The translations under genes were made by a program, and so were the position numbers. The notes below the pieces were generated by a model, which worked only from the letters and a program-made list of their open reading frames with translations, had not been told where the DNA came from and did no database searches. Of a DNA stretch of 39,438 nt, positions 21,988-26,663 are shown piece after piece (the stretch's first letter is position 1; every line of letters starts with the position of its first letter). Source of the DNA: Escherichia coli (GTDB lineage: Bacteria > Pseudomonadota > Gammaproteobacteria > Enterobacterales > Enterobacteriaceae); the NCBI RefSeq assembly GCF_003334335.1, contig NZ_QOWQ01000041.1; one strand, given 5' to 3'.

Positions 21988-22986
<999 letters not shown>

Positions 22987-23316
22987 TTTCTTGCGTTATT
23001 TTCGGCACCTTTTATGTAGCGAAGGTGCCGGAATATATTCTCTTTTGTTACTTATTTCTATACCGTGCACAATATTTTTATCCCTCATATTTATAGGGTA
23101 AATTACCTGTAAAGTAGTGTCTAATTACCCGCCTCGCAAACTCCAGTTTTCAAATATCTATTTCAGGTCAAAAGATTGAATTATTCACTGGAGACGATTC
23201 GTAAATTCGCTGGATTTTTGACTAAAGTTTCTTTAGGATTTGTCTCATCGTATGATTAATTACACCAATCGTTCAACGTCTTGCTGATAAGTGATGGCGA
23301 TTATATGAGGTTAGCA

Positions 23317-23445
23317 ATGCCTTCTGGAAATCAGGAACCCCGCCGCGATCCTGAATTAAAACGTAAAGCCTGGCTGGCGGTTTTTCTTGGTTCTGCACTT
23401 TTCTGGGTGGTTGTCGCACTGCTGATTTGGAAAGTGTGGGGATAA
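23317..23445 (+). CDS. ymiA: Small membrane protein YmiA (42 aa; in-frame ATG at 23305 would give 46 aa)
   Basis: MPSGNQEPRRDPELKRKAWLAVFLGSALFWVVVALLIWKVWG, one hydrophobic helix; below the ORF-track length cutoff; immediately upstream of yciX. Confidence 0.75.
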   Translation: MPSGNQEPRRDPELKRKAWLAVFLGSALFWVVVALLIWKVWG

Positions 23446-23447
23446 CT

Positions 23448-23615
23448 ATGGTCGGTCAGGAGCAACTGGAGTCGTCACCATTATGCCAGCATAGTGACAA
23501 TGAAACAGAAACGAAACGGGAATGTTCCGTCGTTATTCCAGACGACTGGCAACTAACATCGCAGCAGCAAGCCTTTATAGAACTGTTTGCTGAAGATGAT
23601 CAGCCGAAACAATAA
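23448..23615 (+). CDS. yciX: Small protein YciX
   Basis: 55 aa, MVGQEQLESSPLCQHSDNETETKRECSVVIPDDWQ...; ATG 2 nt after the ymiA stop. Confidence 0.8.
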   Translation: MVGQEQLESSPLCQHSDNETETKRECSVVIPDDWQLTSQQQAFIELFAEDDQPKQ

Positions 23616-23987
23616 TTATCATCATTCTTATTACCCATTTTTAATGAATTAAAGGGCTTTTAATACACCGCAGCAATAACAGCTTGAGTTATCTCAACAC
23701 AAAATAATAACCGTTAAGGGTGTAGCCTATGATCAACACAAATATGAAATATTGGTCCTGGATGGGCGCGTTTTCTCTGTCGATGCTCTTCTGGGCCGAA
23801 CTCCTCTGGATCATTACTCACTGATCCTTGACCCCGCTGCGGCGGGGTTGTCATTTGCTTTGCCACAAGGTTTCTCCTCTTTTATCAATTTGGGTTGTTA
23901 TCAAATCGTTACGCGATGTTTGTGTTATCTTTAATATTCACCCTGAAGAGAATCAGGGCTTCGCAACCCTGTCATTAAGGAGGAGCT

Positions 23988-26663
23988 ATGTCGTCAACCC
24001 TACGAGAAGCCAGTAAGGACACGTTGCAGGCCAAAGATAAAACTTACCACTACTACAGCCTGCCGCTTGCTGCTAAATCACTGGGCGATATCACCCGTCT
24101 ACCCAAGTCACTCAAAGTTTTGCTCGAAAACCTGCTGCGCTGGCAGGATGGTAACTCGGTTACCGAAGAGGATATCCACGCGCTGGCAGGATGGCTGAAA
24201 AATGCCCATGCTGACCGTGAAATTGCCTACCGCCCGGCAAGGGTGCTGATGCAGGACTTTACCGGCGTACCTGCCGTTGTTGATCTGGCGGCAATGCGCG
24301 AAGCGGTTAAACGCCTCGGCGGCGATACTGCAAAGGTTAACCCGCTCTCACCGGTCGACCTGGTCATTGACCACTCGGTGACCGTCGATCGTTTTGGTGA
24401 TGATGAGGCATTTGAAGAAAACGTACGCCTGGAAATGGAGCGCAACCACGAACGTTATGTGTTCCTGAAATGGGGAAAGCAAGCGTTCAGTCGGTTTAGC
24501 GTCGTGCCGCCAGGCACAGGCATTTGCCATCAGGTTAACCTCGAATATCTCGGCAAAGCAGTGTGGAGTGAATTGCAGGACGGTGAATGGATTGCTTATC
24601 CGGATACACTCGTTGGTACTGACTCGCACACCACCATGATCAACGGCCTTGGCGTGCTGGGGTGGGGCGTTGGTGGGATCGAAGCAGAAGCCGCAATGTT
24701 AGGCCAGCCGGTTTCCATGCTTATCCCGGATGTAGTGGGCTTCAAACTTACCGGAAAATTACGTGAAGGTATTACCGCCACAGACCTGGTTCTCACTGTT
24801 ACCCAAATGCTGCGCAAACATGGCGTGGTGGGGAAATTCGTCGAATTTTATGGTGATGGTCTGGATTCACTACCGTTGGCGGATCGCGCCACCATTGCCA
24901 ATATGTCGCCAGAATATGGTGCCACCTGTGGCTTCTTCCCAATCGATGCTGTAACCCTCGATTACATGCGTTTAAGCGGGCGCAGCGAAGATCAGGTCGA
25001 GTTGGTCGAAAAATATGCCAAAGCGCAGGGCATGTGGCGTAACCCGGGCGATGAACCAATTTTTACCAGTACGTTAGAACTGGATATGAATGACGTTGAA
25101 GCGAGCCTGGCAGGGCCTAAACGCCCACAGGATCGCGTTGCACTGCCCGATGTACCAAAAGCATTTGCCGCCAGTAACGAACTGGAAGTGAATGCCACGC
25201 ATAAAGATCGCCAGCCGGTCGATTATGTTATGAACGGACATCAGTATCAGTTACCTGATGGCGCTGTGGTCATTGCTGCGATAACCTCGTGCACCAACAC
25301 CTCTAACCCAAGTGTGCTGATGGCCGCAGGCTTGCTGGCGAAAAAAGCCGTAACTCTGGGCCTCAAGCGGCAACCATGGGTCAAAGCGTCGCTGGCACCG
25401 GGTTCGAAAGTCGTTTCTGATTATCTGGCAAAAGCGAAACTGACACCGTATCTCGACGAACTGGGGTTTAACCTTGTGGGATACGGTTGTACCACCTGTA
25501 TTGGTAACTCTGGGCCGCTGCCCGATCCTATCGAAACGGCAATCAAAAAAGGCGATTTAACCGTCGGTGCGGTGCTGTCCGGCAACCGTAACTTTGAAGG
25601 CCGTATCCATCCGCTGGTTAAAACTAACTGGCTGGCCTCGCCGCCGCTGGTGGTTGCCTATGCGCTGGCGGGAAATATGAATATCAACCTGGCTTCTGAG
25701 CCTATCGGCCATGATCGCAAAGGCGATCCGGTTTATCTGAAAGATATCTGGCCATCGGCACAAGAAATTGCCCGTGCGGTAGAACAAGTCTCCACAGAAA
25801 TGTTCCGCAAAGAGTACGCAGAAGTTTTTGAAGGCACAGCAGAGTGGAAGGGAATTAACGTCACACGATCCGATACCTACGGTTGGCAGGAGGACTCAAC
25901 CTATATTCGCTTATCGCCTTTCTTTGATGAAATGCAGGCAACACCAGCACCAGTGGAAGATATTCACGGTGCGCGGATCCTCGCAATGCTGGGGGATTCA
26001 GTCACCACTGACCATATCTCTCCGGCGGGCAGTATTAAGCCCGACAGCCCAGCGGGTCGATATCTACAAGGTCGGGGTGTTGAGCGAAAAGACTTTAACT
26101 CCTACGGTTCGCGGCGTGGTAACCATGAAGTGATGATGCGCGGCACCTTCGCCAATATTCGCATCCGTAATGAAATGGTGCCTGGCGTTGAAGGGGGGAT
26201 GACGCGGCATTTACCTGACAGCGACGTAGTCTCTATTTATGATGCTGCGATGCGCTATAAGCAGGAGCAAACGCCGCTGGCGGTGATTGCCGGGAAAGAG
26301 TATGGATCAGGCTCCAGTCGTGACTGGGCGGCAAAAGGTCCGCGTCTGCTTGGTATTCGTGTGGTGATTGCCGAATCGTTTGAACGAATTCACCGTTCGA
26401 ATTTAATTGGCATGGGCATCCTGCCGCTGGAATTTCCGCAAGGCGTAACGCGTAAAACGTTAGGGCTAACCGGGGAAGAGAAGATTGATATTGGCGATCT
26501 GCAAAACCTACAACCCGGCGCGACGGTTCCGGTGACGCTTACGCGCGCGGATGGTAGCCAGGAAGTCGTACCCTGCCGTTGTCGTATCGACACCGCGACG
26601 GAGTTGACCTACTACCAGAACGACGGCATTTTGCATTATGTCATTCGTAATATGTTGAAGTAA
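23988..26663 (+). CDS. acnA: Aconitate hydratase A
   Basis: 891 aa; Fe-S ligand cysteines; recognised AcnA. Confidence 0.97.

Follow-up and report, generated by a model that had tools for sequence, protein, structure and literature searches.

The DNA analysed here, referred to below as the window, is a stretch of 39,438 nucleotides from Escherichia coli (contig NZ_QOWQ01000041.1). The part of interest is annotated in RefSeq with the gene order cysB, ymiA, yciX, ymiC, acnA. It is 100% identical to K-12 over the region, and its sequence, gene order and annotation are those of the E. coli K-12 operon (b4522, b4523, ymiC); the locus is that operon, which has been described in Hemm 2008, VanOrsdel 2018, Weaver 2019 and the PMC11429745 preprint. 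A preliminary description, made from the letters alone, had assigned two adjacent frames to the known K-12 genes ymiA and yciX, 2 nt apart, and the RefSeq annotation and the coordinates in the sequence agree. Its picture of two small genes ahead of acnA was right about these two, but ymiC, the third, had been overlooked. The features of the locus are collected in Table 1.

Table 1. Features of the cysB-acnA region, in coordinates of the window.
Feature	Coordinates	Strand	Description
cysB intrinsic terminator-like hairpin	23000..23033	+	terminator scan: 13 pairs, then T-rich tail
Conserved non-coding block 5' of ymiA	23112..23304	+	56 invariant columns in 33 species of ~15 genera
ymiA	23305..23445	+	RefSeq; 46-aa form from 23305, conserved 42-aa core from 23317
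ymiA stop / yciX start junction	23443..23450	+	TAA-CT-ATG; comparison of 68 loci
yciX	23448..23615	+	55 aa, predicted cytoplasmic; RefSeq annotation
Rfam RF02079 (STnc180) match	23656..23858	+	spans ymiC leader, ymiC ORF and terminator
ymiC	23729..23824	+	31-aa single-pass membrane protein, third gene of the operon; RefSeq
Operon intrinsic terminator	23829..23862	+	stem 23830-23837 with 23842-23849, loop UGCG, interrupted T-tract TCATTTGCTTTG
TGTTTGTGTTATCTTTA, acnA-proximal PhoP element	23917..23933	+	2 mismatches to the PhoP-box consensus

The region is a three-gene operon, ymiA-yciX-ymiC, with the cysB terminator on its 5' side and the acnA promoter region on its 3' side. Both PMC11429745 and the sPepFinder preprint support a single transcription unit, and in the former study the three genes act as one PhoQ-dependent operon for which low Mg2+ is the inducing condition. 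The terminator-like hairpin after cysB is found at the corresponding position in most of 33 aligned species and parts cysB transcription from the small-gene operon. Conservation within the species is almost complete, a 1.1-kb stretch being present at ≥95% identity in 5422 of 5426 complete E. coli genomes. Beyond the species, 80 Enterobacterales loci were compared, 68 of them with yciX; the ymiA and yciX frames are open and syntenic in ~68 species of Enterobacteriaceae and Erwiniaceae, and the order cysB, ymiA, yciX, (ymiC), acnA is kept across both families. The small-gene cluster is dispensable, since natural loss has occurred in E. albertii, Pluralibacter gergoviae, Intestinirhabdus and Shimwellia.

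YmiA is a single-pass inner-membrane protein with a cytoplasmic N-terminus. Its earlier designation as a 42-46-aa single-helix membrane peptide is borne out by matches to Pfam PF22868 (E = 5.6e-37, model positions 1-46) and NCBIfam NF000536 (96.8 bits, cutoff 30, model aligned to residues 5-46) and by a published GFP fusion that localizes to the membrane (PMC11429745). The features of the family are all present: the gene lies just 3' of cysB in the synteny table, and a basic N-terminal tail is followed by one transmembrane helix with W19, F29 and W30, which are invariant in an alignment of 67 sequences (A2). Two in-frame ATG codons give the 46-aa and 42-aa forms, which share the TAA stop at 23443-23445. 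A GAGG Shine-Dalgarno sequence for the shorter form is found at 23307-23310. Other genera have ACG, AAG, GCG or GTG in place of the upstream ATG, and GAGG and the second ATG are invariant; judged by this alignment, the conserved form of YmiA is the 42-aa core. Initiation profiling in E. coli favours the MRLAMP start. Differences at the three codon positions of ymiA (0.32/0.24/0.54) indicate coding selection, translation is supported by epitope tagging and ribosome profiling, and the protein has been detected by PRM mass spectrometry at ~1000-3000 copies per cell. Deletion of ymiA alone leaves growth unimpaired and gives no phenotype, and excess YmiA results in a longer lag phase and longer cells (PMC11429745).

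The third gene, ymiC, is situated between yciX and the hairpin and was found in ~50 of the 80 loci. Its product matches NCBIfam NF041484 with 66.3 bits (cutoff 42), and its codon-position differences (0.40/0.26/0.53) reflect purifying selection. Chromosomally tagged YmiC is detectable as a protein. A GFP fusion localizes to the inner membrane, and the single deletion, like that of ymiA, leaves growth unimpaired and has no phenotype (PMC11429745). The preliminary description had held that a lack of translation evidence would speak against the small genes; such evidence exists for YmiA and YmiC.

YmiA and YmiC are apparently paralogues, as profile comparison suggests. They are aligned by hhalign over 27 columns with a probability of 91.9% (E = 6.9e-7), and none of 300 column shuffles reaches the observed value of 29.7 (mean 9.9, maximum 20.7). 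Among 18,109 ORF fragments, the best non-self match of each profile is the other. The transmembrane motif common to the two is K-x-x-x-W-x3-F-x2-S-x2-FW, and its invariant residues align on one face of the helix.

YciX consists of two unlike parts. The first 30 residues evolve fast and are disordered, and the C-terminal part contains a conserved module, IPxxWxLTxQQxAFIxxF, encoded at 23538-23588. Within it W34, Q40, F43 and I44 are invariant across the alignment, and the window protein has P31, W34, L36, Q40, F43 and I44. AlphaFold2 predicts a helix at residues 38-49 (pLDDT 82-91). Codon-position differences are 0.48/0.43/0.62 for the whole gene, but 0.27/0.25/0.57 for the C-terminal part against 0.60/0.56/0.65 for the N-terminal part, a pattern which points to purifying selection on the C-terminal helix and module only. 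The characterization of YciX as a 55-aa acidic protein applies to E. coli, where the window protein has a net charge of -9, and not to the family, in which values between -10 and +5 occur (median +1.5); by this comparison the acidity is specific to E. coli. Family membership is evident from the length of 50-59 aa, the position directly after ymiA (2 nt) and the C-terminal motif. The few longer matches that were inspected are miscalled starts or YmiA-YciX fusions and not domains of larger proteins. A search of PDB sequences with the YciX profile returned staphylococcal protein A constructs, at E = 2.8e-6 by summed repeats only; single domains score E ~0.6, and the likeness (LNxEQRNAFI) is read as a chance or convergent helix motif, not homology.

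The spacing of ymiA and yciX is conserved. In 64 of 68 loci the distance from the ymiA stop to the yciX start is between -4 and +4 nt, and 42 of the loci have a gap of exactly 2 nt. In the window this gap is the CT at 23446-23447 before the ATG at 23448, and the most remote YciX relative that was found has a gap of 2 nt as well. The Trp-Gly codons that end ymiA (TGGGGA, 23437-23442) form a G-rich, Shine-Dalgarno-like element 6 nt 5' of the yciX ATG, and 63 of the 68 loci with yciX have TGGGGN or TGGAGY as the final codon pair of ymiA. Stop and start codons that overlap or lie a few nucleotides apart across species characterize coupled pairs, and the coupled expression proposed earlier is strongly suggested by the spacing kept in 64 of 68 loci. 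Ribosomes ending ymiA would reinitiate at yciX, with the G-rich Trp-Gly codons as Shine-Dalgarno sequence, and it is proposed that the membrane peptide and its soluble neighbour would therefore be made in matched amounts.

The conserved block 5' of ymiA presumably comprises the operon promoter, regulator sites and the 5' UTR. Its invariant elements include TTAGGATT (~23232-23240) and GATAAG (~23287-23292). A structured leader or riboswitch is ruled out, RNAalifold predicting zero pairs in the 330-nt cysB-ymiA intergenic alignment, and a hidden ORF is ruled out by single-nucleotide indels and by invariant columns without 3-nt periodicity. Scanning of the + strand from 22900 to 24100 gave no sigma-70 promoter match, an otherwise uninformative result that fits an activator-dependent promoter. 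A reporter carrying the region 5' of ymiA is PhoQ-dependent and is upregulated in low Mg2+, and RNA-seq reveals the PhoQ dependence of the small-gene operon under the same condition (PMC11429745). When the PhoP-box consensus (T/G)GTTTA-N5-(T/G)GTTTA was scanned, no canonical box was found 5' of ymiA. The best matches, 23219-23235 and 23230-23246, have 3 mismatches, which is at chance level (132 such matches in the window, 92 expected); they overlap the invariant block, and their half-sites are poorly conserved. No PhoP binding at the ymiA promoter was found in the literature. Because a canonical box is absent, PhoP control of the operon may be indirect; alternatively, the conserved 190-bp block may serve other regulators. 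The Cpx regulon as given in a Salmonella paper includes yciX, and inspection of the conserved block by eye for a CpxR site (GTAAA-N5-GTAAA) gave only one conserved GTAAA half-site (~23202), which is unconvincing. The statement that these genes are functionally uncharacterised is only partly true, since regulation, localisation and deletion and overexpression phenotypes have been published and YmiA has been quantified.

The hairpin ccccgc-tgcg-gcgggg, earlier placed near 23825-23840 as a free-standing element before acnA, exists and is conserved, but it lies at 23832-23847, ~7 nt away, and is the terminator that follows ymiC. RNAfold gives a hairpin of 8 pairs (-18 kcal/mol, z = -2.7), and the terminator scan finds 9 pairs (23829-23850) with a T-rich tail after them. 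The hairpin starts 4-7 nt past the ymiC stop; the distance is 1-9 nt in 35 of 50 loci and 16-37 nt in Erwiniaceae. Across 34 species compensatory changes are present in 6 of 8 pairs and 92.6% of cells are paired; the observed score is not reached by any of 500 shuffles, and slid controls score far lower. A GC-rich, structurally conserved stem-loop followed by a U-tract is what defines an intrinsic terminator, and the A-run/stem/T-run architecture is found in most genera. The U-tract of K-12, TTGTCATTTGCTTT, is interrupted, in contrast to the clean T-runs of other genera, and because of this the K-12 terminator may leak into acnA. An RNA 3' end is located <200 nt downstream of ymiC (Adams et al. 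2021). The operon would be transcribed as one mRNA of ~600 nt that ends at the hairpin.

Downstream of the terminator, the element TGTTTGTGTTATCTTTA is found ~71 nt 5' of the acnA ATG and is kept in most Enterobacteriaceae, including E. albertii, which is without the small genes. An identical sequence has been named as a PhoP site in Salmonella with EMSA support; there PhoP-P bound the acnA promoter fragment, and the rise of a lacZ reporter was not significant (PMC10294627). The element belongs to the acnA promoter and not to the small-gene operon. Transcription of acnA would be driven mainly by its own downstream promoter. Two acnA promoters, at ~-407 and ~-50, were reportedly described by Cunningham, Gruer and Guest in 1997; the -407 5' end, if correct, would fall within yciX and could result from processing.

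Parts of the transcript could be taken for non-coding RNA. That yciX is not protein-coding, with a frame open by chance or a spacer RNA within the ymiA-ymiC transcript, is scarcely credible. The reading would suit the near-neutral evolution of the N-terminal 30 codons, the deletion of yciX in a few lineages that retain ymiA and ymiC (L031, L033), the result against Pfam and NCBIfam, where no model matches significantly (DUF4280, E = 0.12), and the literature, in which no direct evidence for YciX translation was found. The comparative evidence to the contrary is strong: the frame of 50-59 codons is open in all 68 divergent loci with its ATG ≤4 nt from the ymiA stop, the C-terminal module has, besides its four invariant residues and its confidently predicted helix, an excess of synonymous change, and a profile search among 1.84 billion proteins yields a coherent small-protein family of 90 clusters at 50% identity. 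It is likewise highly improbable that 23656-23858 is a genuine trans-acting small RNA (STnc180) in which the ymiC ORF is incidental, even though the match to RF02079 is full-length (model positions 1-208), scores 198 bits (gathering score 50, E = 7e-43) and ends in the same 3' terminator hairpin, and although cDNA reads had placed the region on a Salmonella list of sRNA candidates. The paper with that list reports signals of 500-2000 nt only, obtained for six candidates as a group, STnc180 among them, and judged these signals likely to be processed mRNA. Promoter activity is absent directly 5' of ymiC (PMC11429745; sPepFinder preprint), and the terminator stem is the only predicted helix within the 65-nt terminator alignment. 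Unlike a discrete non-coding sRNA, the segment contains the conserved ymiC ORF, which is translated into a membrane-localised product and in which substitutions follow codon positions. The best reading of STnc180 is that it represents the coding 3' part of the ymiA-yciX-ymiC mRNA.

Other alternatives concern the relation of the operon to acnA. Together, ymiC and the hairpin could act as an attenuator that responds to translation, ymiC being an upstream ORF for acnA: while at the ymiC stop, a ribosome would cover the 5' arm of the nearby stem and suppress termination, and transcription from the ymiA promoter would enter acnA only while ymiC is translated. The pair ymiC-acnA is among the candidates of Adams et al. 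for an upstream ORF with an RNA 3' end, the hairpin closely follows the stop in 35 of 50 loci, the K-12 stop codon is predicted to be paired in an outer terminator helix, and the K-12 U-tract is weak. The 500-2000 nt species seen with the Salmonella Northern probe group that includes STnc180, and the PhoP response of Salmonella acnA (PMC10294627), also agree with attenuation. In mdtU-mdtJI (Adams et al. 2021) a small ORF is likewise followed by a close RNA 3' end before a larger gene, but the present terminator is intrinsic and not Rho-dependent, ymiC comes last in an operon upstream of acnA and its product is a conserved membrane protein, and regulation of acnA by ymiC is putative. Attenuation is considered unlikely, since acnA has its own conserved proximal promoter element, retained in E. 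albertii, the Erwiniaceae hairpin is 16-37 nt past the stop, strong canonical terminators with long T-runs are present in most genera, YmiC is under purifying selection as a membrane protein and is more than a sensing peptide, and ordinary terminators are often near stop codons. A functional tie between the small proteins and aconitase A, acting under iron or oxidative stress, is very unlikely. It draws on the gene order kept across the two families and on the EMSA with the Salmonella acnA promoter fragment, because of which the small genes and acnA may share one input, even though the reporter rise was not significant. The operon, however, is served by a promoter region of its own and closed by a conserved terminator ahead of acnA, the published inducer is low Mg2+ via PhoQ and not iron or oxidants, and acnA stays when the small genes are lost (E. 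albertii, Pluralibacter). AcnA, unlike the membrane peptides YmiA and YmiC, is a soluble enzyme, an aconitase phenotype is unreported, and nothing was found in the literature that ties the small genes to aconitase or to iron or oxidative stress.

The preferred account is the ymiA-yciX-ymiC operon with its published regulation and the proposed transcript, coupling and docking model; taken jointly, it is given a probability of about 0.85. The mode of action in it is proposed by analogy with MgrB (an inhibitor of PhoQ, 47 aa) and MgtS (a stabiliser of MgtA, 31 aa), both small PhoP-regulated inner-membrane regulators. Like these, YmiA and YmiC would dock, through the aromatic/Ser face of the helix, on a larger inner-membrane protein or on each other and alter the activity of the target during Mg2+ or envelope stress, and YciX would be a cytoplasmic partner that acts through its single amphipathic helix. 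In this helix-face model the residues concerned would be W19, F23, S26 and W30 of YmiA and W11, S18 and W22 of YmiC. The likeness is that YmiA and YmiC are induced PhoQ-dependently by low Mg2+, are single-pass and have ≤50 aa; overproduction of YmiA, MgrB or MgtS prolongs the lag in each case (PMC11429745). In contrast to MgrB and MgtS, to which they have no sequence similarity, YmiA and YmiC can be deleted silently, and the operon combines genes for two paralogous membrane peptides with one for a soluble protein. Each paralogue may mask the loss of the other when only one is deleted. No partner protein of YmiA, YciX or YmiC is known in the literature.

A more far-reaching proposal, which is quite doubtful, is that the three proteins form one stress-induced membrane module and that, in addition, the terminator gates read-through into acnA. 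YmiA and YmiC, with their shared W-x3-F-x2-S-x3-W face, would have a common inner-membrane target or each other as target, YciX would be made in step with YmiA and bind through the single conserved helix, and the terminator, 4-7 nt past the ymiC stop, would let PhoP-driven transcription into acnA. If true, envelope or Mg2+ stress would thereby be connected with the stress aconitase.

The locus is already known: its genes, the translation of YmiA and YmiC, the PhoQ/PhoP regulation and the downstream RNA 3' end are in the literature or in RefSeq. What is added here is comparative detail, namely the conservation of the ymiA-yciX junction, the covariation of the terminator, the YciX module, with only 17 YciX residues constrained, and the homology of YmiA and YmiC. 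The locus has three genes rather than two, and the hairpin is that of ymiC. These clarifications have little weight as discovery, but they are potentially useful for working out the roles of PhoP-induced small proteins, and the conserved helix face of YmiA and YmiC provides a concrete mutagenesis target for finding their partners.

The small genes between cysB and acnA are real and were correctly named in the preliminary description, but they are already known. They are annotated and largely described in the literature, and the label "uncharacterised" holds only in part. The sequence reading (22900-24200) and the ORF listing agree with that description on ymiA and yciX and show a gap of two bases, CT, between the ymiA TAA and the yciX ATG. 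A third small ORF, ymiC, had been overlooked; the RefSeq order is cysB, ymiA (46 aa), yciX, ymiC, acnA. The window is 100% identical to K-12 over a 1.1-kb stretch that is present at ≥95% identity in 5422 of 5426 complete E. coli genomes. Pfam PF22868 (E = 5.6e-37) and NCBIfam NF000536 (96.8 bits; the model spans residues 5-46 only) recognise YmiA, NCBIfam NF041484 (66.3 bits) recognises YmiC, and no Pfam or NCBIfam model was found for YciX.

Features of the cysB-acnA interval, in window coordinates
Feature	Position	Description	Source
cysB terminator	23000-23033		terminator scan
Conserved upstream block	23112-23304	~190 bp	
ymiA	ATG 23305 or ATG 23317; TAA 23443-23445	46 aa or 42 aa	sequence reading, ORF listing
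GAGG	23307-23310		
yciX	23448-23615	55 aa, net charge -9	ORF listing
STnc180 (RF02079)	23656-23858	198 bits; takes in ymiC and the hairpin	Rfam
ymiC	23729-23824	31 aa, MINTNMKYWSWMGAFSLSMLFWAELLWIITH	ORF listing, RefSeq name
Terminator stem	23830-23837 with 23842-23849	8 pairs, -18 kcal/mol, z = -2.7 against shuffles	RNAfold
K-12 U-tract	23850-23862	TTGTCATTTGCTTT, interrupted	
PhoP-site sequence	23917-23933	TGTTTGTGTTATCTTTA	

The three genes have been handled as a single operon in work in which low Mg2+ induces a reporter carrying the region upstream of ymiA, with PhoQ needed, and the segment directly upstream of ymiC is inactive (PMC11429745). In the same study YmiA and YmiC GFP fusions go to the membrane, deletion of ymiA or ymiC leaves growth unaffected, and cells that overproduce YmiA lag for 8-10 h and are longer, effects for which the start codon is required (PMC11429745). 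YmiC was first demonstrated by chromosomal tagging (PMC6001520), targeted mass spectrometry gives ~1000-3000 copies of YmiA per cell (PMC12529367), and a Salmonella paper names yciX as a Cpx regulon member. An independent preprint places ymiC on the yciX 3' UTR without a promoter of its own, and published dRNA-seq shows no independent ymiC promoter. The inactive segment upstream of ymiC and the dRNA-seq result together argue for co-transcription.

Conservation of the block upstream of ymiA is unusually high (56 columns are invariant across 33 species) and exceeds that of the coding regions. It includes TTAGGATT, GATAAG and the inverted repeats CTAAAG-TTT-CTTTAG and TTCAAT...ATTGAA; no consensus RNA structure, sigma-70 consensus or good PhoP box was found within it. 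Control of the operon is PhoQ-dependent, and direct action of PhoP at this block is only putative.

With CysB as anchor, eighty loci were fetched from different Enterobacteriaceae and Erwiniaceae species, and the small genes were placed in them with the help of tblastn and by tracing ORFs. The yciX ATG follows the ymiA stop at a distance of 2 nt in 42 of 68 loci; in 64 the spacing is between -4 and +4 nt. The final two codons of ymiA are nearly always TGG-GGN or TGG-AGY, which supplies a GGRG element ~6 nt 5' of the yciX ATG. Such a conserved junction is what translational coupling would be expected to leave. Initiation-site profiling in E. coli favours the 46-aa MRLAMP start of YmiA, and an earlier tetracycline profiling paper also takes up the start site. 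This annotated start is not kept beyond Escherichia, Citrobacter and Enterobacter, and ATG 23305 is replaced by ACG, AAG, GCG, GTG or ATC in many genera. Because the GAGG and ATG 23317 are invariant across the compared loci, ATG 23305 varies and the NCBIfam model starts at residue 5, the 42-aa core is the conserved protein, to which E. coli may add four N-terminal residues.

Gene order from cysB through acnA is maintained throughout Enterobacteriaceae and Erwiniaceae, and the remotest YciX relative found among 1.84 billion proteins lies in the order topA, cysB, ymiA, 2-nt gap, yciX, acnA. All three small genes are missing from the loci of E. albertii (L004), where cysB and acnA are only ~260 nt apart, Pluralibacter gergoviae (L026), Intestinirhabdus (L037) and Shimwellia (L058). 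In three Klebsiella or Klebsiella-like loci (L047, L072, L076) the sole remnant is a divergent 44-aa YmiA without the usual WG end. Natural loss of the cluster has occurred in several lineages. In E. coli EC931 (L086), an IS1A insertion at the ymiC 3' end (locus positions 1172-1869) alters the YmiC C-terminus (annotated 32 aa) and parts ymiC from the terminator and acnA.

YciX belongs to a family of only 90 clusters at 50% identity, every one 31-115 aa. The few longer matches inspected come from miscalled starts or from frameshifts that fuse YmiA to YciX, and none of these is a domain of a larger protein. Among 97-100-aa database entries, P0046, P0055 and P0087 are fusions by frameshift or miscalled start, and several 77-83-aa YciX entries begin in the ymiA frame. 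The acidity of YciX is an E. coli peculiarity and does not characterise the family, since net charge ranges from -10 to +5 among its members. W34, Q40, F43 and I44 are invariant, and the C-terminal motif is LTxQQxAFIxxF (LNxLQRNFIES in Erwinia). AlphaFold2, run with the family alignment, leaves the N-terminus disordered and predicts a helix with confidence at residues 38-49 (pLDDT 82-91). Residues 31-47 (23538-23588) resemble helix 2 of staphylococcal protein A domains (LNEEQRNAFIQS); at a single-domain E of ~0.6 the likeness probably reflects chance or convergence on a helix-capping motif.

The hairpin noted between the first two small genes and acnA is present, at 23832-23847, about 7 nt downstream of where it had been placed, and it is the terminator of ymiC and the operon. 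The stem begins 4-7 nt after the ymiC stop codon, and a consensus scan, which counts 9 pairs followed by a T-rich tail, classes it as terminator-like. An RNA 3' end lies <200 nt downstream of ymiC (Adams et al., PMC7815308, who list ymiC-acnA as a possible uORF unit). Nearly all ymiC-bearing loci have a stem-loop 3' of ymiC (1-9 nt past the stop in 35 of 50), with the textbook A-run, GC-stem and T-run in most genera. RNAalifold on 34 species gives 8 pairs, of which 6 show compensatory changes; 92.6% of cells are paired, and the 39 double-change cells observed exceed the shuffle value of 9.7 ± 2.8 (none of 500 shuffles reaches the observed number; slid controls are far lower). The hairpin is a conserved intrinsic terminator of the operon. 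Most other genera have 5-7 unbroken T where the K-12 tract is interrupted and weaker, and more transcripts may read through into acnA in E. coli than elsewhere. In the RNAfold structure the ymiC stop codon (UGAU) is also paired, with GUCA right after the stem.

Two non-coding readings of the region carry little weight. STnc180, catalogued as an sRNA, coincides with the ymiC coding region and the operon terminator. In the original Salmonella study the STnc180 group of candidates gave only 500-2000 nt species, judged likely processed mRNA (PMC2515195). The family probably represents part of a coding mRNA, and a true non-coding sRNA is unlikely. A non-coding yciX is very unlikely. Its codons 1-30 are near neutral (pairwise differences at codon positions 1/2/3 of 0.60/0.56/0.65) and codons 31-47 are constrained (0.27/0.25/0.57); whole-gene values are 0.48/0.43/0.62, with 0.32/0.24/0.54 for ymiA and 0.40/0.26/0.53 for ymiC.

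A functional link of the small proteins with aconitase, and with iron or oxidative stress, is improbable: synteny and a common PhoP input favour it, nothing beyond these supports it, and the known inducing signal is Mg2+/PhoQP. Phosphorylated PhoP is reported to bind the Salmonella acnA promoter at the PhoP-site sequence (PMC10294627). In most Enterobacteriaceae this element, T(G/C)TTTGTGTTATCTTTA, stands ~71 nt ahead of the acnA start codon; it overlaps likely -35/-10 promoter sequence, so conservation alone is no proof of PhoP binding. Since it is present even in E. albertii, which is without the small genes, acnA retains its own promoter whatever the fate of the operon. A ymiC-dependent attenuator for acnA is doubtful but possible, and would fit alongside the operon and terminator description, to which we assign a probability of about 0.85. 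Under that description one ~600-nt mRNA would carry the three genes, yciX would be translated by reinitiation after ymiA, and the promoter of acnA itself would drive most of its expression, though K-12 may show some leak-through. Our confidence in the molecular action of the proteins is much lower. By analogy to MgrB and MgtS, YmiA and YmiC may modulate a larger membrane protein through a conserved aromatic/Ser face, and YciX could be a cytoplasmic partner binding through its lone helix.

YmiA and YmiC share the transmembrane motif K-x-x-x-W-x3-F-x2-S-x2-FW. Invariant residues W19, S26, F29 and W30 of YmiA correspond at a constant offset to W11, S18, F21 and W22 of YmiC, and W19, F23, S26 and W30 of YmiA, spaced i, i+4, i+7, i+11, fall on a single helix face. 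A YmiC query repeatedly matches the ymiA frame in tblastn. Profile-profile comparison gives a probability of 91.9% (E = 6.9e-7, 27 columns), with a score of 29.7 against a mean of 9.9 and a maximum of 20.7 for 300 column-shuffled YmiC profiles and 11.7 for the reversed profile. When all loci were cut into six-frame ORF fragments (18,109 in total), the only non-self matches of the YmiC profile at E<0.1 were 60 YmiA ORFs; the YmiA profile finds 36 YmiC ORFs at E<0.1, alongside two fragments of no relation that score E = 0.05 or weaker. Each is the other's best non-self profile match. YmiA and YmiC are thus apparently paralogues within one operon, a relationship that appears to be new; the principal study of the two proteins makes no mention of the transmembrane likeness. 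The relationship points to a tandem duplication and a common binding surface, and could account for the silence of the single deletions.
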